From Podarcis liolepis (lineage: Eukaryota): a stretch of 64,000 bases of DNA. Of this stretch, positions 25,471-58,689 are shown one piece after another (within the stretch, counting starts at the first letter, position 1; each line of letters starts with the position of its first letter). The notes beneath the pieces are model-generated. The model saw only the letters and a list, made by a program, of their open reading frames with translations. It searched no databases and had not been told where the DNA came from. The translations under genes and the position numbers were made by a program. The stretch lies in assembly GCA_965112155.1 (NCBI GenBank), contig OZ218107.1, one strand, 5' to 3'.

Positions 25471-28171
25471 CTGATTTTTTTATGCTTCCCTTCTTCTTTT
25501 CCCCTTCAATTGGTGCTTATTTTAAACTGGGGAAAGAAGATGGTATGCTTTTGCAAAACAAAAAACTACGGCGATCAATTTGATGTATAGTAACATACCA
25601 TTATGTGTGTTTTTGAAACATGCGTATTTTGGGCTGTAATGAAGATGATCAATGTCCATTTTGCTGTGACACTATATTCGCTTCTACTTGTGCTATGGAA
25701 ACTTTTCTTCATATCTAGGTGGGATGCTGTCTGCATATTTGATCTGGACAGCACTTGATCCTCAAAAGAACCTCCAGAGTCCAGAATACTGCCCAGGGTT
25801 TAACTATCGGAACAGAAGTGTCAAGACACCATTCCACAATTCAGTGGGTTGGCATGCAAGGCGACCTGAGGAATTTGTGGTGATTGCAGGCAAATTATAA
25901 GCATGGCAGTCTGCTCTGACACCAGCAGTTCTAATTTAATTAGATGAGTGCTGTGAAGACTGAGCCTCCCTCTATAAATGAGTGCCATCCAGGGGCAGCA
26001 ATTTGGTGGTCCGATTTTGGTCATGCCCACAAGCTTAGATGGAGAAATAGTTAGCTACACATACAGTGTTTTGTGTAGTTAACATTTAACTACTGTAGAT
26101 GCATCTTTGTTTCTGCTGAAGCGGATGGTCCTGAGAGTTTGAGGAAGGTTTTGCATTATTAAGTACTATAGAATTCCTGTCAGTTTGGTGCTTATCTGAG
26201 CTACTACATACAAGGTCTTCTAAATGTTTCTCCGCCTGTTATAGCCCTTTCTGGATTGGCTTAGTTTCAAAGTCAGGCTCTAGCCTTAGCCCTGACAAAC
26301 TCTATTTTAGAACAGTAAATACACAGGGCAATGCAGGCTGGATGGAAAGTACAGTGAAAGAAGTAAAATTTAATACATATTATCACAGATGATAAAACTC
26401 CAGGGTAATGTACAATTATTTGTGTTGCAAAAATACAATAAAAGTGGCTCTTAGAAAATTGTTGTAGGTAATAACGTTGCCAGAGGCTTTAGTTTTAGGA
26501 TGAACTCTGCATCTACAGTCCTATGAGTATTTAGAGTGTTTCCTGTCTGGGTGAAGGTGCAAAGTTGCAATGCGCTCAGTGTGATAAATTTGAAATTGTA
26601 GTTCTTCAGTAGATTTTGGAGATACAAAATTCCATTTTTAAATTGCAATTGTTGATGACACATCACCAGCTACAGCTTTTATTTTAATCTTCTATGAATT
26701 TTCATAATCATTGCGTTTTTGTACTGTCACTCTATGCATCATTCTTTGTCTCCTTGTTAGGTTGTTTTAAATTTATTAGCTTAAATCCTTTTCCCACAAG
26801 CATGCTCACACACATACATATATCGCACACATACATGTAAAATGAAATTGCTTTCCAGTTCTTGAGCCAAATGCTCATTCAAAACTGATGAATTAGAACT
26901 AACACTCACTTACAGCATTTATAACAGATGCTTGCAAACAAAATATTAAGTATAATGAAATCCAGCCAGGATTTTATAAAAACAGTGAGCAGATTTCTGC
27001 GTAAGAATTGAAGCGCAGAGTAAAATGACAGAGAAACACAGTGTCCCTAAAGCCATATAGCAGCTCCACAGTTCAGTGGATTGAAAAAGATCCCTCTTAA
27101 TTTTAGGATAGAAATTACATCAAGTTTCTATAGACTGACTTGCCTCATCCTTTCTTTTAAAAAAAGGGGGTGAGTTAATCTGACACTCAGTGCATTCTTC
27201 GGTAGCGAACTTGCAGTGCCTTTACAGGAAATAAGAGCTTACAGCTCTGCAAATCAGTGGAGGTGTACTGCCATTAAAAGATACTTTGGGTCTAAATCTT
27301 ATTAAAACAGAAAATTCTCATATCTATCTGGTATGCAGATGGGTCTAGCTTTCACAACATGCAGCTTGTCATGTTTTATTTGTAATCTGCAATGATAAAC
27401 ACTATCCCAGAATTTAAAATGTTGTGTCCTGTAGTTAGGCAGAATGAGGTTACTATCTCTTAGGCAGAAAAGGGTGAAGAAGTAGGAAGGTGATTACTAA
27501 ATGTGAAGTTCTTTCTTGGGGGAAAACCTAAGCAAAGCCAGAAGCCCACTCCCTGTCTCCAGTGTGCACCTCTGACTGACTTCAGCTCTCTTCTTGCCAT
27601 GCAGAAATATAAAGTGCATTTTCCTTCTCTTCTGCAATAATGTCAGGAATGCAACTTCCCTACCTCAGAAATGCATATGCTTCCACCATAGACATCATCT
27701 TGGTCTACAAGCCATTTGACCATACCAAGACTGTTCTTTTCTAATTTTATTTCCTTCAACTATTAGCCCCCACAAGTATGGCCAATGGGCAGGGATGATG
27801 GGAGCTGTAGTTTAGCAACAGCTGGAGGGCCAGAAGGTCCTTTCACCTAGGCTGCAAGCTTGGAAATCTTGAAATTATTCTGCAATGCCTCATCCATGAC
27901 AGCAACACTCAGAGAAGCCATCATTAAAAGAAAAAAGGCAAACCTACATTGGAGATTGAACTATAGGTGGTTTCTGTAGCAATAACTTCAAATGTTAAAA
28001 ATATATGAAACAGGCTTTTCCCTAACCATCCAGCCTGCCTTAATTCTCGTGCTTTTGCTAGTTACCATGAGCAAAATAACCACAGCTTCTAATCTTGAAT
28101 TCTCATTGTGTACAAGAATGCAAAATCCATAATAGGGATATCATAAATTCTCATATGTATGAAAATTATTG

Positions 28172-28292
28172 ATAGGTAGCCGTGTTGGTCTGCCATAGTC
28201 AAAATAAAAAAATTCCTTCCAGTAGCACCTTAAAGACCAACTAAGTTAGTTCTTGGTATGAGCTTTCGTGTGCATGGAAGGAATTTTTTTAT
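28172..28292 (-). mobile_element. Truncated Penelope-like terminal insertion with a short inverted tail and 14-bp TSD
   Basis: Nearly identical to 58486-58589; flanked by TATGAAAATTATTG at 28158-28171 and 28293-28306. Confidence 0.85.
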
Positions 28293-30608
28293 TATGAAAA
28301 TTATTGTACACCTGGGCTGCAGAGCAGGAGTACCACCTCCACCTGGTTTTCAAGGACTCCTTCAACCTTAACTATACCTACTCACGTGGGAATCTGTTTG
28401 ACATGCAGAGCTGCCATTTTTTAACTTGTTGCAGTTTTCTTGTGATGGGGGGGTGTACATGTAACAAGAGGCATTCTTTGTATCAGGTTCTTAAAAGGTG
28501 AATGAGCAAGGGCAGTACAAAGATGGCAACAGTAGACAATCATGGTCATCACTTCAAAAGTTACCTCTGATTGTTGGTACAAAAAAAATCAGAATGCACT
28601 CATTCCTTCTGATAATAGAAGCTTGACATGCAGGAAATAACACAGGAACCTAGGAAGGTGCCTTAAACAGGGTCAGACCATTGTAGCATGAGTTCCAGGT
28701 GGGGTCCTCTCCCAGCCCTATCAGTAGATGTTGGGGATTGAAACTGCCTGCATACAAAATGAATGCTCCAATTGAGCTCTGATTCTTCCTAAAGAGCACA
28801 AGACAGGGCAGGTTTTTTTCTTTCACTGGGTCTGTTGATGATTGTAGGACTACAGTACAAAGTTATGACTGACCTGCTCAAGCTATGATACAATTGAGAT
28901 ACTTGGAGACAAAAGAGAGAATAGGATAAACAAACAAACAAACAAACAAAACAATGCTTAGTGGCCCTTAGGGGGGGAAATACCCTAATTTGGATTTAGG
29001 AATAACAGAGTACAAAACTGTGAAACTCACATTTTACAAGCTTTGCATTATATGCTCACTTATTTAAAAGTTAACCCTACTAATTGCATTGGGATCATTA
29101 AACATAACGGGGTGATTACATGTTACTTTCAGTGAGTGTATAATCTCTGTAAATAGCTGGGCGGCATGAATCAACGCAAACACTTGTACCTGTGTAGACA
29201 GACAACTTGTACCTGTGTTTAGAGTACTATGAATAACCTTAATGGGATCAAGTTTCAAAGGCATTCATTTATTGCAAACTTGCATTATAGCCAATGAGAC
29301 CACTTAGCTGAAGAACCAGCTGTGTTTTGAACTTTAATGCTGCTTGGCAGAGCAATACTGTGCATGTCTTCTCAGTCATAAACTAAATGGGACCGGCAGG
29401 GAAGTATATATATGATTGTAGTCTTTGTGGATTACCTTGGAACTAATGGGGATTAAAACAAGGCAAGTAATGTGTAGCCAGAAATATATCATTTGGTTAC
29501 GGTAATTTATATCCATGCATTTTGCATAATTTAAGCTGCAATCCCATACACATTTATTTACCTGCAACTGAACTTGGTGAGGCTTCTAAATTGACAAATT
29601 TAGGATTGTACTATTCTCACTGTTGCAGCTAGTAAAGTGGAGGGCCTGTCTTTTTTTATTTCATTTCATTTTCCCAAATCGGAACTGAAATAGTATTAAC
29701 AAATGAAAATGTCCCTTTAAACTTGAATTGAGTGCCTCAGCCTCCCTCCTGTGAAAGGAACTGTTTTGTACCCCTCATTAGATGGGAGTGGAAGGGCACA
29801 AACAGCTTTCAGACAAAGGTGAGTTCCAGCATCTTTTATTTAGAAATTAATTATGGAATAATTAAATTAAGGCACATTTATTGGAACACATCCATTCAGT
29901 GCCAAAAATCAAAACCTTACATGCCAGGAAACACACTTCTCAAAACCAAGGATTGCTTTCAGCTTGGTTCTATTCAGAGCAGACTTGCTGAAATTGGTTA
30001 ATATTGTTAATGTAGGTGCATTGATTTTAATGTCTTAAGTAGAAGCTGGAAACAACCTCAAGTCCCTTTCCTCCTATAAAACCCAAAAAGCTAATTATTT
30101 TAGCTCTATAGACAAAATATAGGAGTTTAAGAGAAAGCCCACCACATCTTAGCAGTGGAACCTATTTTCAACTCAATGGCTCAACCTCAGATATTTGAAG
30201 GGGGAAAAACAAAAAGTTAGACCATATGCACCAGAAAATAATTACAACCATCTCCACATATCTAAAATTAGGAATAATGTCTTCCAGATTTTGACACATC
30301 AGTCGATGTGACAGGCAAACCATTTTGAGACCCCACATTACATATTTTATAAATCCACTGACAAAATGGACCCTAAAACAGGATCACCGGCATTGCTAAG
30401 CAAGCTAAAAAGTCTACCTTGCTTGCCATCACTGCAAAAAAGAGTATGTTGAATCACTCCCTACTTGTATTTCCCAACCAGTGGGTCAGAAAACCTGTGG
30501 CATCTACACATCAGAGGCAAATTGTAATACTCAAAACAACAACTTGTATGAGCACCTTATGGTGAACCATCATCAGATCTACCACCAGAGTTGACTAATA
30601 GTTTAGCC

Positions 30609-31740: not shown

Positions 31741-31857
31741 TGCAGACACTGCAAAAAGGATAACTTCTTGAACTGTCATATGATAGGACACTCAACAATA
31801 TTTTTTGGGAACTGAAATTAACTGGATGTTGGCTTCATATCACCAAATTACTCACTA

Positions 31858-32083
31858 CAGTGGTACCTCGGGTTAAGTATTTAATTCGTTCCGGAGGTCC
31901 GTACTTAACCTGAAACTGTTCTTAACCTGAAGCACCACTTTAGCTAATGGGGCCTCCTGCTGCTGCTGCACCGCCGGAGCCCGATTTCTGTTCTCATCCT
32001 GAAGCAAAGTTCTTAACCTGAAGCACTATTTCTGGGTTAGCGGAGTCTGTAACCTGAAGCGTATGTAACCCAAGGTACCACTG
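31858..32083. mobile_element. Tc1/mariner-type MITE
   Basis: TA|CAGTGGTACCTCGGGTTA...TAACCCAAGGTACCACTG|TA; same family as 58443-58883, opposite orientation. Confidence 0.92.
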
Positions 32084-33423
32084 TACTGAGTATCCTGAGC
32101 TTGCTAATGAAGCAGTACCGTTGCTGCTGCAATTTGGTAGCCGATACCTTTGCTGGAGGTTTTCATGCAATGACTGCTATGAAGATAAAATCTCAGATCC
32201 CACACTGAGTACACATTGGCAAAACACAAGCTTTAGGGATCCCACCAATACTTGCCAAAACAGACTTGACCATGAATGAAAAGATGACAAACTGAAAATT
32301 GTTAATAGTTTCATCTAACACCACTTTGGTATATTTATAGAATACATTTTTATGGCTTATGAAGCAATATTCTGAAGTCATGACTGGTGTTCTTACATTC
32401 TCATAAAAAAAAAACCTGATTGAATTTGTAAGTACTATAAATAGTTCAACAATTCCACATTAATGGGGGCATCAAGAACAATTTTTGCTTGGATGGTTAT
32501 AAAGTCGGCAAAGCTTCACTTAAAATGCATAAAACTGATGGCTGCCAAAGAGCTAAGGTCCAAAATTCATGTGACAATAAATCACTGGGTCAGTAAATAC
32601 AAAGTAAATTTGGACCTGTGGATCATACTAAAAAGGTTGAAAAGCACTACCCTACCTCATGCAGCTTTCTGGAAAACTTAAGGAAGCTGGCAAGATACTA
32701 CTCCTGCTTCCCCCTTCCTTCACATTAATTCCATTGCAAGCTGATGCTGCTCCCTCAAGACACAGTTTAAATAAGAAATTGTAATTATTTTTAAGGAGCA
32801 TACATAGGTTAGAAATTTATCTCAGTACTTTTCATTCAAGAAAGAGTGAGAGTTCGGCTGCTCAGACTACAAAAGAGAGCAGTATCCAAAAAGTACAAAG
32901 CCCTGTTATGCAATTCAAACACAGGCTGTTGGGAATGAGAGTCTGAATCAGCCAGAAGTTGGGAACCTTTGACTCTTCAGTTGATGTTGGACTCTGTCAC
33001 CCATCATCCTTGATCATTAGCCATGGGAGTTGAAGTCTACAACATCTGGAAGGCCTCAGGGTCCCATAATTGAAATAAATCAGGTGGTGACCGTGATTCT
33101 TGGCTGCCTTTTATCGAGAATGGTGCTGGATAACAAGTTTGTCCTCATACAGTGAGATCTACTGAGCAAGCATTAGGTTGTTTTCTATCTGTGTTGTGGC
33201 AAGAAGCAAGCATTTCGCTATTTTTACAGGGGGAGGGAGGCGCTAACAGGCAACCATAGGCAGCTGCAATTCTAGGTGTAACGCTTTAACTGAGAGAAAA
33301 CACCCCAATTATGTGGGGGAGGGATGTCTGGCTATCTTCCCAAAAATCGGAATTTGGGGGGAGGTGGAGAATGCAGCCTGAATCAGCTGCTGAATTTAGT
33401 TTAACTTGAGGTGTAGGCTACAC

Positions 33424-34539: not shown

Positions 34540-35460
34540 ACGTGCCAGAACGCGAGCGGTCGGGAATGCAAAATGCAGGCGGCGCTTCGCTTTTCAGGCA
34601 CAATCCTTATAACGCAGGGCGAGCGTGGCCTTTACTAAGGATTGCCTGGCGGGCAGCTGCTGGCGCAGGAGAGCGGGTAGCGTCGAGCGCTCCTTTGCCA
34701 AATAATGTCAGCGGGTTGGAGGGCTTCCCTCAGGGACGGCTGCTGCCTGCAGGGCCGACTGACAATGGCCTGGGAGGCGGTGCCTTTTTCCCTGCAAGGA
34801 ACGGACTGGGCACATGGTCTGCATTCTCTGCACAGTAAACACCCCACTGAGAACATGAAGAGAGTGTGTTGTCGTTTTTCTCCCCAACGGGTCTACAGCC
34901 TGAGTTAAACTTCGTCGCGCCCCATAAGAACTACAACTCCCAGAACCGCGCGCGCTGTGGAGCGAAGGCTGTTTACACGCCGCTCGCCTCCCTCTCTGGC
35001 TCTTCCGGCGCCGCGTCTTCTCTCTCTGCCCATTGGGCGCGGCGGGAGCGCGAACGATTCCATGCGCTTTGGAGGTGCGCGCGGAGGCGGCGCGGCTATT
35101 GGCGACTCGTGCGCTCGGTAGGGGGAAAGGGAGCGCGCGCCGCCCGGCCGCGTCTTGTCGCTGGTGGTGTTGCTCGGCGTCTGCATGGGCAAGAGGAGAG
35201 CCATGGAGCGGGAAGGAGGCCCGGTAAGTCGGTGGTGGTGGTGGTTGCTTTGCTCGGTTAGCGGCGCGGCGGCAGTGAGGAAGGGCTCCCAAGCTCCTTG
35301 CTGTGGTGCCGTAATAACGTCCCACCTGCCTGCCTTCCGCTTATGGCGAGGGGCGGGGAGGGGGTGTTCCATGTGAAAACGGAATACAGTATATTTCCCT
35401 CATAGATGGTGCGTGCCCCCTTCCCACTAAAAGGAGCTCGCCCCACAACCCGTGCCTCTC
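34540..35460 (+). promoter_or_regulatory. CpG-island promoter of L3MBTL2
   Basis: High GC and CpG content; ZNF143/THAP11-type ACTACAACTCCCAGAA at 34930-34945; inverted CCAAT boxes (ATTGG) at about 35033 and 35098; GC box GGGGCGGGG at about 35350; spans coding exon 1. Confidence 0.88.
35203..35223 (+). CDS. L3MBTL2: L3MBTL2 exon 1 coding part (MEREGGP)
   Basis: Strong Kozak GCCATGG and strong donor CCG|gtaagt; phase 0 matches exon 2; an in-frame upstream ATG at 35185 would add MGKRRA. Confidence 0.8.
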
Positions 35461-36371
35461 TTTCTCCACTGCCCTTCTTGCTGGACCCCTGTGTGCAACG
35501 AAAGGCACTTTTCTTTAGCCCTAAACGGTATCAAATAAGCTTCCTTGAAAGTTAACTCGCTTGTCTTTTTCTCTCTTTTACTTTCAAAGACAGTTGCTCC
35601 TAGTCTAGATAGATAGATAGATGGATAGATATGGATATTGGAAGCAATTCATTGAATACTTGTTACTTCCTCAATCAAAAGGTGGTTTTTGTAATGCTAT
35701 GTCTATTTTTTTTACAAATCAGATTATATATAGTGTATTATATGAGTCGATACACAAGTGTATTTTAGGTTATAGAGGTTCTTTTTTCTAGGCGTTTTAT
35801 ATTTTCTTTATTGGTTATAATTATAAATAATAATAAATATAGGTTTTCCTTTAGGGAAAATATTTTTTTTGATGGGAGCCTTAATGTTACTTAAATATAC
35901 TGTTATTTACCTTTTTAGAAAACCAACATGTGGGACAAAGCTCACTCCCTCCCCAAAATGCATTTTACTCCTTCTGTGCTCTCCTCAGTATGCCTTGTTT
36001 CCAGTATCAATGCTATATTTACTTTGTATTGCTGCCCTTGACAAAAAATAAAAATAGACTGAAATTTTTGAGTGTTGAAAGTGTTGCCCCCCCCCACTGA
36101 ATCCATGTGACTGATGCTCCCAACTATATTATTATGTGAATGATCCTGCACACATGTAAGTTTCCTTTAAGTATTGAAAGATGTATGTGGGACAGCGCTA
36201 GCATATTGGCTAATTACCGTACCTCCTGGCTTTGCTTTGTGTGCAATTCGCTGCTTCTTGCTTATCAAACAGCTTATTAAATTTGTAACTGGCTGCTATT
36301 AAAACTAAATGACAGGTTTCAAAGTGAACAGTTAAATATCAGTAGAATAAGAGTAACATCCAGCTGCTGTT

Positions 36372-36489
36372 TACAGGTAGGTAGCCGTGTTTGTCTGCCG
36401 TAGTCGAAACAAAACAAAAAAAATTCCTTCCAGTAGCACCTTAGAGACCAACTAAGTTTGTTATTGGTATGAGCTTTCGTGTGCATGCA
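36372..36489 (-). mobile_element. Truncated Penelope-like terminal fragment in L3MBTL2 intron 1
   Basis: Reverse complement of 36421-36489 matches 39073-39141 with 3 mismatches in 69 nt; possible TSD CATCCAGCT (36357 and 36488). Confidence 0.85.
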
Positions 36490-38431
36490 TCCAGCTATTG
36501 ATATTTGTTTGAGCACCATCAGTATGGTTCAGGAGTCACCAGTTTTGTGCCCATGGCTGGAGCGGGATAGGTCTTCCTTGGCCCCATCCTTCTGCTGAAA
36601 TTACTGTAGTCAGTAGAATTAGTTTTGGTGTGTGCTTTGTTGCATGTTGCCCATTGACAGTTTCTCCAGATTGGGCCCAAAGGTTGGTGAGTTCACTAGT
36701 CCGCAATCCTGTGCAAATTTAAGAGCAAGTTCCCCTGAATACAGTGGGGCAACTTACAATTTAAATGTATTTTAGGATCTGATCACACAATAGATGGTAA
36801 TAAGGATTGGATTTGCTAATGCAACATTGATTGGAAGATGCTAATTGGTTAGGAGTGTAGAACTGGAGATTCTTGGGATTAAAGGAATGCTTTGTGGAAG
36901 AGGGTGGAGCTCAGACAGGAAATGGAATTTGATATTTATGGTGTGGTGGTTCCAGCTGTAGGGCGCATTATGGCTGGATGAGTAGTCGTAGGCAAAGAAC
37001 TTCATGAACTCAGTAGTGATTTGGTGGCTTGCTGGGTAAATGGACTTAATCAATACAGCATATTGCTTGATCCCTCACAACAAATATGCAAAAAATAATA
37101 ATACATGTCCTTCCTGTTGAATAACTACTTAGTCTATAATAGCTATTTGCTGGGGTTTTATATTCAAAAGCTGTAGCTTAGATTATTTTTTTATTCTCCC
37201 ATAAACATGCATTGAACATTAGGTGGGAAATGTCCTGATGGTTATACTTGCAAAAAGTGGTTAAAATTAGACTAGTCTGCTTGAAGTAATCTCTACTGGA
37301 TGTGGCCAGATTTTTTTCACCCCAAATTGTAGTGGGCTACTATGGGTATCTGCTGCCTGCTTGACATTGCAATCTTCTTGAATTAGAAAGAAAAGCCAAG
37401 GTGGTAGGATGTTTGACTGCACTGGCTTCCTCAGTATGTTGCTAAACGCACAAAGGTACTTAACAACTCTTTCTTCTTCACTGTTTACCTCATGTCTTTA
37501 CAGAGCTGGGCTATAGTCATGGCCACTTACCCCCAAAGTCTTCTTAACTCACTTGTTTGCTTTGCTGGGGTTCTCCACATACATTTCTGCCTACAGTGTC
37601 CTAACATTGCTTGAAACCAGCAAGTAGGAGGGGGAACTAGATGTACAGTTATCTCTCTCTCTCTCTTTTTGCCAACTGTGTTTAACATCCTGTCTGCTTT
37701 GCCCCTAAATTTCCGATGTGTAGAAGGATTGCACAAGTCAGTGGGTTTAAAAGCGTGTTCTGGCCCTCCAGGCAATTCTGGCAATCCTGAAAGGTAACAT
37801 GTCTGCACTTATGGATTATCTCATATAATGCACTCCCAGTAACAGGAGAGAGGCAGGTGCAGGGCATGTTTCATGTGGTCAGTTGAGTCAGGGTGACGTC
37901 TAGGCCCAGTGGACCAGGGTATAGCTTCAAATGGACTTGAGACAAGCTATTGAGAATTCCCCAGAATCCTCTGCAATATGCAGAAATTCCACAGCAGATG
38001 CTCAGGAGTTCCCTGGAGAAGGTGCATCAACATAGACAGTGTTCCCTGAAAGAAAAAAAAAATGGAAAATGCTAGCAAAGATTGAAGTTATGAAACGTCA
38101 AAGAAGACTGAAATGATATACAGTTATATCACCCCCCCCATTATTCTAGCTTGATTTTGTGTACTCCTTAGGATGTACATCAGTTTTACTTTTTCTTCTT
38201 CTTTTTGTGCAATTGCCCACTACTACCACATCACTGTTTTCTGATTGTGCCTATTGTAATTTATGTGGTGCTCACTAAAGACCTCAAAAAGTCAATCCTA
38301 TTCTGACCTTGGAAAAAAGCAATAAAAAATTATTATAAAAAAAAACAAAAAACAAAAAGTCAATCCTAAAATTTTGAGAGTTATCATGACTTCAGGATTA
38401 AACATTTTAAAGCACAGGATAAATGAACAGA

Positions 38432-39147
38432 GAAATTCCTTTGTAGTAAAACACCTACTTTGAGATCTTGTATAGAATGTCCTGGGAGATTGAAGTGTTC
38501 TCCTACTGGTTTCTCTATTTTGTGATTCTTGATGTCAGATTTATGTCCGTTTATTCTTTGGCGTAAGGTTTGGCCTGTTTGTCCAATATAGAGAGCTGAA
38601 GGACACTGTTGGCATTTGATGGCATACACAATACTATACTAGCTACTATGGACGTGGAATCTCTGTATACCAACATCCCACACAACGATGGTTTACAAGC
38701 TATAAGGAACACCATTTCAGATAAAACCACAGCAGACCTTGCCACCAAACTCTGCAAAGGAATTTCAGAAATAGACTGGAAAGAGAAGCTGCTGAATTGC
38801 AACTCATTACCAAACTTAAAACCATGGAGAGACCTGGTCTGAACAGAGACATTGGATTCTTATCTCATTATACATGACTAAGCCATTTCTCACCTTCTCA
38901 CCCCTTGCCTTTTCCTGTAAGACCTATTACAGTCGTTAAGAGTCGTCAACAGGCTCATCTCAGCTATCTGCCAATCTCCCATTCCCACCACCCTTCTGAG
39001 TAATACCCCTCCCCACCTTCTCACTATATAGAAGGATCTGGCAACTTCTGTTTCAGTGTATCTGAAGAAGTGTGCATGCACACGAAAGCTCATACCAAGA
39101 ACTAACTTAGTTGGTCTTTAAGGTGCTACTGGAAGGAATTTTTTTAT
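38432..39147 (+). mobile_element. Rearranged Penelope-like retroelement: inverted GIY-YIG N-part, RT fragment, GIY-YIG C-part and terminal repeat
   Basis: Minus 38432-38632 VYAIKCQQCPSALYIGQTGQTLRQRINGHKSDI...VGEHFNLPGHS; plus 38628-38755 ILATMDVESLYTNIPH (PLE RT motif); plus 38755-38877 QRNFRNRLEREAAELQLITKLKTMERPGLNRDIGFLSHYT*. Confidence 0.93.
39058..39095 (+). ncRNA. Minimal type I hammerhead ribozyme motif (Penelope-associated)
   Basis: GUAU-CUGAAGA-A-GUGUG(CAUG)CACAC-GAAA-GC-UC^AUAC: stem I GUAU/AUAC, complete core, 5-bp stem II, palindromic AGCU stem III, predicted cut after 39091. Confidence 0.8.
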
Positions 39148-39402
39148 TTAAATTGTTCTAGTTTGTTGTTGTTAGCTGCTTGGCTTAAAGGAAACAACAC
39201 AGTATTTTAAATGAATATGTAATATTTTAAGGGGAGCATATTGAGGGAGTATGGGACCTCGTCATTAGTGGAAGTACCGACACTTCCTTGGCTAATAGCC
39301 TGCTCAAATGATGCTGCCTCTGATATATGTGAACTGAGTGCCTCTTTCCCACCAATCATGCCTGTGGGTGTTTCAAATATACTCGGTCTGTTTTGCTGTT
39401 AG

Positions 39403-39661
39403 TTGGAGTCTCCAGCCCATTGCAAGTCCTCATCCTTGGAGCAGAAGAATGAGGAGCAAGTGGATGATGACTTGGACCTCTTTGGGGGTTATGATAGCTG
39501 CCGGCGTTACAGCAGCAGTGGAGAGAGTGGCAGTACCTCCTTCCTGGAAGACTCTAGTGAGAATGAAGCAGCAGATCGAGAAGCTGGGGAACTGCCTACA
39601 TTGCCTCCACAGGCCCAAAAACCTACCAGCCGATTGCCAGATGAAAGTGGTTCTGAGCCAG
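39403..39661 (+). CDS. L3MBTL2: L3MBTL2 exon 2
   Basis: gttag|TTG GAG TCT...CCA G|gtactg; DDDLDLFGGYDS...DREAGELPT...SGSEP. Confidence 0.92.
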
Positions 39662-45842: not shown

Positions 45843-46226
45843 CAGTGGTTTCCCAACCTTTTTGGTATGGCAACTCACAAGCCCAAATTTACCTGGCATG
45901 GTAGGTGACCCATTGATTTATTGTCAAATGAATTTTGGACCTCAGGTCTTCGGCAGCCATCAGTTTCATGCATTTTAACTGCATGTTTGCCTATTTTATT
46001 ACCACTGCTTAAGACAGGCATAGGCAAACTCGGCCCTCCAGATGTTTTAAGACTACAATTCCCATCATTCCTGACCACTGGTCCTGTTAGCTACGGATGA
46101 TGGGAGTTGTAATCCCAAAACATCTGGAGGGCCGAGTTTGCCTGTGCCTGGCTTAAGACATCCCAGAAAAAATAATAAAGCCTGTGACTCACTTGCAGGT
46201 CATAACCCACAGTTTGAGAAGCATTC
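45843..46226. mobile_element. Older hAT MITE interrupted by a younger MITE
   Basis: Starts CAGTGGTTTCCCAACC, ends CAGTTTGAGAAGCATTC; 7/8 TSD match AGCTAGAG / TGCTAGAG. Confidence 0.6.
46015..46150. mobile_element. 136-bp near-palindromic hAT MITE
   Basis: CAGGCATAGGCAAACTCGGCCCTCCAGATGTTTT with the inverted copy at the other end; perfect 8-bp TSD GCTTAAGA. Confidence 0.92.
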
Positions 46227-57813: not shown

Positions 57814-58094
57814 TTGTTGCTGTGGAGGTGAAAGAAGAAATTCTTGACGATTCAGCAATGGAACTTGAAGCCCCACTGCTACCAGTCCCAATCAGCTGCT
57901 TAAAGGATGAAGATATGGACACAGAATCCCCACTGAGTCCTATGCCGGGCGGCCGCTTAAAGGATAAGGAGATTGAACCAGAAGCTCCAGCAAGCTCTGT
58001 GTTGCTCAGCTGCTTAAAGGATGAAGTCATGGAACCAGAAGCTCCAGCAAGCCCAGTATTGATCAGTTGCTTGAAGGATGAAGATGTAGACTAA
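57814..58094 (+). CDS. L3MBTL2: L3MBTL2 terminal exon 17 coding part
   Basis: tgcag|TT GTT GCT GTG GAG GTG AAA GAA GAA; IVAVEVKEE resembles human IIAVRVKEE; stop TAA at 58092-58094. Confidence 0.9.
57858..58085 (+). repeat. Coding tandem repeat, 4 x 57 nt (19 aa)
   Basis: MELEAPLLPVPISCLKDED / MDTESPLSPMPGGRLKDKE / IEPEAPASSVLLSCLKDEV / MEPEAPASPVLISCLKDED. Confidence 0.92.
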
Positions 58095-58479: not shown

Positions 58480-58689
58480 TAGTAGATAGGTAGCCGTGTT
58501 GGTCTGCCATAGTCAAAATAAAAAATTCCTTCCAGTAGCACCTTAAAGACCAACTAAGTTAGTTCTTGGTATGAGCTTTCGTGTGCATGCACACTTCTTC
58601 AGATAGTGTGCATGCACACGAAAGCTCATACCAAGAACTAACTTAGTTGGTCTTTAAGGTGCTACTGGAAGGAATTTTTTATTTTGACT
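58480..58689. mobile_element. Fold-back Penelope terminus: perfect 85-bp inverted repeat, 9-nt spacer, 14-bp TSD
   Basis: Arms 58511-58595 and 58605-58689 are exact reverse complements; TSD ACTTCAGGTTACAG at 58466-58479 and 58687-58700. Confidence 0.93.
58569..58605 (-). ncRNA. Second minimal hammerhead motif (minus strand, stem I shortened to 3 bp)
   Basis: Minus strand reads UAU-CUGAAGA-A-GUGUGCAUGCACAC-GAAAGCUC^AUAC. Confidence 0.6.

Follow-up and report, generated by a model that had tools for sequence, protein, structure and literature searches.

The locus and its host gene

We analysed a 64,000-nucleotide stretch of Podarcis liolepis DNA (contig OZ218107.1), referred to below as the window. 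Its plus strand contains the 3' part of EP300 (1062-24342), followed downstream by L3MBTL2, and we take this gene order to be the same as in human. The identity of the second gene comes from its later exons. The MBT exon has L3MBTL2 as its best PDB match (215 bits vs 174 for MBTD1), and the FCS finger exon has a PDB match to L3MBTL2 alone. At the 5' end, the coding part of exon 1 is placed at 35203..35223 (+) from the ATG at 35203, the donor and the phase. Intron 1 would then cover 35224-39402 (+), from the donor CCG/GTAAGT to an in-frame acceptor at 39403, and the presumed exon 2 is found at 39403..39661 (+). According to this gene model, the hammerhead motif described below is located in sense orientation in intron 1 of L3MBTL2, as an earlier note on this DNA had stated, and the distance from its predicted cut site to the presumed exon 2 is 311 nt, in agreement with the value of about 310 nt given there.

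Two other features of the surroundings were observed. The last coding stretch of L3MBTL2 (57867-58083) contains an imperfect in-frame repeat of three "ELEAP/EPEAP...ISCLKDED"-like units. A 150-bp inverted-repeat element at 46008-46157 and a related copy at 32494-32663 are likely a small DNA transposon.

A minimal hammerhead motif in the presumed intron 1

The 38-nt segment 39058-39095 (+) has the layout of a minimal type I hammerhead. The 5' strand of stem I, GUAU (39058-61), is followed by the core CUGAAGA (39062-68), an extra A (39069), the 5-bp stem II (GUGUG at 39070-74 and CACAC at 39079-83) with the loop CAUG, then GAAA (39084-87), GC (39088-89), U (39090), C17 (39091) and the 3' strand of stem I, AUAC (39092-95). 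All nucleotides of the conserved core are present (C3 U4 G5 A6 N7 G8 A9, G12 A13 A14, A15.1, U16.1, H17), and the predicted cut is after C39091 (39091/39092). The motif also has the features of minimal hammerheads: the extra base before stem II (A39069; a feature from PMC4209133), the G10.1-C11.1 pair (G39070-C39083) in a helix II of 5 bp, where at least 4 bp are typical, and a helix I of 4 bp (GUAU/AUAC; 4-5 bp are typical) in type I topology. AGCU is its own reverse complement, i.e. positions 15.2-16.2 are palindromic, and helix III is loopless and cannot close in a monomer. On all these points, including the stem lengths, the earlier description agrees with the sequence. It missed that stem II together with its loop (39070-39083) is a perfect 14-nt palindrome.

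A descriptor or covariance-model check had been proposed for the motif, and the two gave different answers. We used a minimal-hammerhead descriptor consisting of a stem I of at least 4 bp, CUGANGA, an optional extra base, stem II, GAAA, a short helix III region and UH. When both strands of the window were scanned a single site was found, with the cut after 39091, while 150 first-order Markov sequences of 64 kb, also scanned on both strands, gave 0 matches. A second, unchanged copy of the 34-mer 39062-39095 is present in the window at 58569-58602 (-), and any match to it was found in 0 of 100 shuffles. Given these two controls, we reject a chance origin of the motif. The copy at 58569-58602 escapes the descriptor, as its stem I is no longer than 3 bp. 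A looser pattern, CTGANGA-N5-30-GAAA, gave 11 matches vs 5.2 expected and was discarded as too loose.

Rfam, in turn, returned 0 gathering hits in the whole 64-kb window and five weak, chance-level hits in 38500-39500, none of them a hammerhead. The motif, with its loopless helix III, differs from the canonical fold with a closable helix III and loop-loop contacts that the Rfam hammerhead models match, and we attribute their silence to a limit of these models and do not count it against the motif. By fold stability alone the motif does not stand out either, with neutral z-scores (-0.01 for 39040-39115 and -0.44 for the 38-mer).

The motif belongs to a rearranged Penelope-like insertion

The hammerhead is part of an insertion of ~715 bp at 38432..39149 (+; the ends are approximate by a few bases), which is 5'-truncated and rearranged. 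The first piece, at 38432..38635 (-), is an inverted part of a GIY-YIG endonuclease, found by Pfam (E 8.3e-6, above the cut-off), by protein search and by tblastn. A protein search with this piece gave 26 proteins among 35 candidates. The best match, P0001, is a protein of 585 aa with a reverse transcriptase (RT) domain together with a C-terminal GIY-YIG endonuclease in one ORF; the inverted piece corresponds approximately to its residues 483-549, with 96% identity in the protein search and 86% when P0001 is aligned to the window. After P0001 come Zootoca and Podarcis proteins at 79-91% identity, and then mostly turtle proteins at 65-76%, a ranking that by itself makes a lacertid lizard the likely host.

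The second piece, at 38630..38755 (+), corresponds to approximately residues 127-168 of P0001 in the RT (tblastn, 91% identity over 45 aa, E 2e-20); the Pfam RVT_1 match is weak here, E 0.19. The third piece, at 38752..38877 (+), contains the last 41 residues of the ORF and the stop codon, with 98% identity to residues 545-585 of P0001. The inverted piece and this last forward piece have 12 nt in common at the inversion point. The 3' untranslated region, or pseudo-LTR, follows at 38878..39149 (+) and ends at a common end point of the family, without the optional tail. The hammerhead is located in this pseudo-LTR, ~180 nt downstream of the stop codon of the ORF for RT and GIY-YIG. A Penelope-type hammerhead had been proposed from the motif itself, and the RT and endonuclease debris in the same insertion bears this out. 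The longest match between the flanks is 6 nt and A/T-rich; it was rejected as a target-site duplication, and no other was found in the flanks of the 39-kb insertion.

The full-length architecture is known from P0001, of which the window keeps only pieces. A CX2-5CxxC linker is present in all three proteins checked (P0001, at residues 445-453, P0015 and P0018). In the available text of Craig et al. 2021 (PMC8557442), this linker marks the Neptune and Nematis clades, and the class anatomy is given as 5' truncation, an adjacent inverted piece and an optional tail of 30-40 bp. P0001 and the 39-kb copy resemble the Neptune elements described there in the RT followed by a C-terminal GIY-YIG, in the linker, in the 5' truncation with an adjacent inverted copy, in the optional 30-40 bp tail and in the hammerhead within the pseudo-LTR. 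Unlike them, the 39-kb copy is a dead fragment with an additional RT piece at the inversion point. Judged by these protein features the element is likely Penelope-like of the Neptune type; we say likely only, because the linker is also found in Nematis.

Pieces of the family also appear inside annotated genes. Among the proteins P0002-P0006, P0008, P0009, P0011 and P0012, Zootoca vivipara gene models fuse its GIY-YIG piece to a protein with PF00619 (CARD), and turtle gene models fuse it to endothelin, zinc-finger, RRM and kinase domains. These fusions could be exon capture or annotation noise.

Copies of the family and their end points

In the window there are four insertions of this family, at 28171-28276, 36375-36489, 38432-39149 and 58485-58689. 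Over the shared part, the identity to the 39-kb copy is 75/75 for the 28-kb copy, 70/73 for the 36-kb copy and 90/90 for the 58-kb copy. The CUGAAGA core is retained only in the 39-kb and 58-kb copies. The core-less copy at 28171..28276 (-) is located between EP300 and L3MBTL2, and the stretch 28171-28297 shows it with an 18-nt inverted stub and a target-site duplication of 13-14 bp. The other core-less copy, at 36375..36489 (-), is in the presumed intron 1 of L3MBTL2, antisense to the pre-mRNA; it is complementary to 39073-39145 and has an exact 9-bp flank duplication.

The fourth copy (58485..58689, -), with the identical core at 58569-58602 and an inverted arm, is antisense to L3MBTL2 and close to its 3' end, ~400 nt past the presumed stop and near AATAAA signals. 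It forms a near-perfect 180-bp inverted repeat within an older repeat. An uninterrupted paralog of that older repeat, at 31853-32086, reveals a 13-bp target-site duplication.

To compare the region 36000-39400 with sequencing data of related organisms we used 4 of the 24 listed runs (X1, X3, X8 and X11). In each of the four, between 11,637 and 24,891 contigs match this region, and the summed depth over the hammerhead is 2.6-6.2 x 10^4 times that of the flank, a value to be read as an order of magnitude and not as a copy number. Very roughly, the family would have tens of thousands of insertions genome-wide. This estimate is consistent with four insertions per 64 kb (Poisson 95% range 1.1-10.2).

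The contigs also show where copies begin and end. Contigs with unrelated flanks start at 39058 (50-61 per run) and stop at 39149 (52-79 per run) in the four runs, and a second end lies ~40 nt past this point, at what corresponds to 36371 at the antisense copy (66-80 contigs per run). The end clusters at 39149 and ~40 nt beyond are the two-end "tail" signature of Penelope elements, as described in the available parts of PMC11167929 and PMC8557442; the former explains the two 3' ends of the anole element by two RT start points. At the other side, many family copies and inverted joints begin at 39056-39063, at the 5' edge of stem I, and not at the cut site 39092. Such starts could represent an intron end of the element, a transcript start or a stop of the RT at a hairpin.

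Age of the insertion

In run X8 a single contig of 1,219 nt, with the depth of the flank, matches 37887-38295 and 39147-39400; the two parts are separated by 374 letters, vs 851 in the window. As this one contig bridges the flanks with the shorter sequence, the site is empty in X8, and the element and its hammerhead are absent. In X3 and X11 single contigs extend 414 letters (374 + 40) past 38295, which brings them to the next contig listed, while the window enters high-copy sequence after 136 letters. By this arithmetic both runs fit the same empty allele; the pieces listed for them, a small part of the total, include no bridging one. In X1, the run closest to the window, the assembled sequence is interrupted in an A-rich repeat and resumes at 39163. 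A half-depth bubble of 3 letters at 39162, also found in the empty allele of X8, is a weak hint that X1 is heterozygous for the insertion.

The empty site in X8, the X3 and X11 contigs that fit the empty allele and the 90/90 identity with the 58-kb copy together make the 39-kb insertion likely young, where young is relative to the organisms compared. The empty allele is ~240 nt longer in the flank than the window, which suggests that the insertion was accompanied by a target deletion of this length. At the 36-kb antisense copy, on the other hand, contigs break in all four runs; we take it to be present in each of them, and this copy is for that reason likely older than the one with the hammerhead.

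Relation to known hammerheads and Penelope-like elements

The class of element, the motif, its dimer requirement and the scattered truncated copies are already published (PMC4209133, PMC8557442, PMC11167929, PMC6765202 and bioRxiv 10.64898/2026.07.22.740005, as far as their available parts go). Our literature search found no publication on the hammerhead locus in L3MBTL2 intron 1 and nothing that links L3MBTL2 with a ribozyme. For lizard intronic hammerheads, PMC11167929 was the only relevant paper by title, and no title among the matches listed concerned the lizard family. The family is also absent from the two supplementary files of PMC4209133 that were searched, which cover part of the supplement.

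The closest comparison is a minimal hammerhead of the turtle Chrysemys picta bellii in that supplement. It shares with the lizard copy the core CUGAAGAA, the extra base before stem II, the G10.1-C11.1 pair, a stem I of 4 bp, a stem II of 5 bp and the loopless palindromic G-C at 15.2/16.2, and the endonuclease piece of the lizard family is 71-75% identical to Chrysemys proteins. From turtle to lizard, stem I changes from GCAU/AUGC to GUAU/AUAC and stem II from GUGGG/CCCAC to GUGUG/CACAC, that is, two compensatory pairs, one per stem, in this one comparison. The cut-site base is C in the lizard copy and U in the turtle row, and the 4-nt loop II and 14-nt palindrome of stem II and loop are seen in the lizard copy, while the turtle relative is without the palindrome. 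Because of the two compensatory pairs between the turtle and lizard families, the hammerhead structure appears to have been kept for the element; although a single comparison, this points to selection that acts for the element.

Poseidon PAc of Anolis carolinensis (Frangieh et al. 2024, PMC11167929) is likewise a Penelope-like element from a lizard; it has a minimal hammerhead, its 3' ends are of two kinds (the tail), and its targets are AT-rich. It differs in belonging to another clade, Penelope/Poseidon, described as lacking the Cys linker; the start codon of its ORF is placed at stem II.

The hammerheads of RECK, CTCL and DTNB are, like 39058-39095, of type I and located within a host intron. 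The accessible part of PMC6155905 describes them as domesticated, conserved across amniotes and equipped with tertiary contacts. Unlike these, the motif at 39058-39095 has a helix III that cannot close, is surrounded by transposon debris and occupies a site that is empty in related organisms.

These differences bear on the main proposal of the earlier note, taken here in the form of a kept regulatory site at which dimerisation in trans would couple Penelope expression to the processing of a Polycomb pre-mRNA. The sense orientation, a core that is complete at the sequence level, the position 311 nt before the presumed exon 2 and the existence of domesticated amniote examples speak for it. Conservation at the orthologous intron position is, however, not what we find, as the site is empty in X8 directly and in X3 and X11 by arithmetic, and a host-conserved ribozyme in L3MBTL2 intron 1 is rejected on this ground. 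The motif sits among the debris of its own RT and endonuclease and is identical to that of another copy, and selection specific to the host is thus not apparent. At the density seen in the window, about one copy per 16 kb, a landing in a notable gene is to be expected. Nothing in the analysis speaks for activation in trans, and the literature search adds no connection between this gene and a ribozyme. What we see instead is a likely young insertion of an abundant family, and the regulatory link to L3MBTL2 is very improbable.

Predicted folding and activity

The folding results are nearest-neighbour equilibrium predictions at 37 C that leave out Mg2+, tertiary contacts, proteins and co-transcriptional kinetics, and such models understate the stability of three-way junctions. 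The bare 38-mer is predicted to form stem I at 64-73% and stem II at 97-98%. When at least 18 upstream bases are included, the core bases are predicted to be 76-99% paired in all three native-context segments. The partner would be an element-encoded hairpin at 39045..39070 (+) that pairs the CUGAAGA core; it also contains an acceptor-like CAG, whose last base is 39056, shortly 5' of stem I. Forcing open the half-hammerhead past this hairpin would cost 2.5-5.5 kcal/mol. The motif had been called intact. This is right for the sequence, with all core nucleotides in place, while in the predicted folds the core is paired by the upstream hairpin.

Dimerisation is the known way around an open helix III. 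According to the available text of Cervera and de la Pena 2014 (PMC4209133), monomers of such hammerheads do not cut and dimers cut little, mostly at non-physiological Mg2+; the dimer need assumed in the earlier note is consistent with this report. For the lizard motif, a double hammerhead (bare pairs only) is predicted at -11.1 kcal/mol, two monomers at -13.6 and the best homodimer at -30.6. The active dimer would thus be 19.5 kcal/mol less stable than the best dimer, which is inactive, pairs the 14-nt palindrome of stem II between the two molecules and leaves helix III unformed. As stem II and its loop are a perfect palindrome, a strong competing dimer is possible, with a predicted -25.2 kcal/mol for its 14 bp compared with -2.5 for helix III.

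A second competitor would be the antisense copy, located 2.6 kb upstream in the same presumed intron and transcribed earlier. The 73-bp duplex of 39073-39145 with 36417-36489 is predicted at -89 kcal/mol net and would cover half of stem II, GAAA, AGCU and the cut site. The two copies, 2.6 kb apart, may not meet before splicing. Taken together, the paired core, the disfavoured active dimer and the antisense cover favour a silent passenger, and the cleavage activity of 39058-39095 in host RNA is predicted to be low.

The same calculations bear on whether the copy could do occasional damage, with protein or RNA of an expressed element activating it so that a small share of L3MBTL2 pre-mRNA is cut, a mild cost that every sense intronic copy would share. 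This copy and other young copies have an identical core, partner copies are in principle plentiful, and the predicted cost of opening the upstream hairpin is modest. The anole hammerhead cut only when the protein of the element was added (PMC11167929). That paper also reports that insertion in vitro did not depend on the hammerhead, and that none of the RNA-seq reads started or stopped at the anole cut site. Further, the 39-kb copy stops at 39149 without the tail and may lack the binding site of the protein, and the weak helix III and the inactive palindrome dimer are predicted to work against cutting. We consider such conditional damage unlikely.

An effect of the copy could also come about without cutting, through a cryptic acceptor at 39056/39057 or through the 73-bp duplex with the antisense copy, which might be edited. 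The acceptor-like CAG at 39057, with pyrimidines at 12 of 17 positions, has a crude score equal to that of the presumed exon 2 acceptor, and in Drosophila virilis a Penelope intron has been mapped to end at the 5' boundary of helix I (PMC4209133). The duplex with 36417-36489 is itself a prediction. On the other side, intron 1 contains 15 sites that get through the same crude filter for acceptors, and there is no donor-like site of at least 6/8 in 38400-39402, so no cryptic exon is evident. A candidate exon at 39057-39122, with a donor of only 5/8, was rejected. Effects of this kind have, in our estimate, hardly any probability.

Discussion

Very probably the motif is an ordinary passenger: the standard 3'-end hammerhead of a Penelope-like element, carried by a likely recent, truncated insertion, with little or no effect on the L3MBTL2 transcript. 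The endonuclease of the element would have nicked AT-rich DNA, and the RT would have begun synthesis at 39149, without the tail, which is one of two 3' positions where copying usually starts in the family. It would then have stopped early and switched template once; a second priming would have written the inverted piece, with the loss of ~240 nt of the target. In the tandem transcripts of the element itself, the hammerhead would cut as a dimer in cis or with the protein of the element. In the intron of L3MBTL2 it stands alone and its helix III would be unable to close; the prediction is that either the element's upstream hairpin or the antisense copy, located 2.6 kb upstream, pairs with it, and the intron would likely be spliced out uncut. 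As there are four family insertions in 64 kb, sense intronic copies are expected by chance in many genes.

A wider version can be imagined, in which thousands of lacertid introns contain sense copies with an intact core and an element that is switched on (in the germ line, in hybrids or under stress) cuts host pre-mRNAs in trans, including that of L3MBTL2, while host sequence such as the older antisense copy acts as a lock under which a sense copy can persist. We regard this as a long shot. If host pre-mRNA were indeed cut in trans, retroelement activity would carry a new cost; the L3MBTL2 locus gives no support for it.

As it stands, the finding matters little: both the motif and its class of retroelements have been described before, and this is a further copy. 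The 39-kb copy is a tidy example of the anatomy of a Penelope insertion, with an inversion, a template switch, a tail-less end and a target deletion, and it displays two compensatory base pairs relative to its turtle relative. It bears on the question whether minimal hammerheads cut inside cells at all, and the abundance of this family permits copies in introns to be counted by orientation, sense or antisense, and by core, intact or missing.
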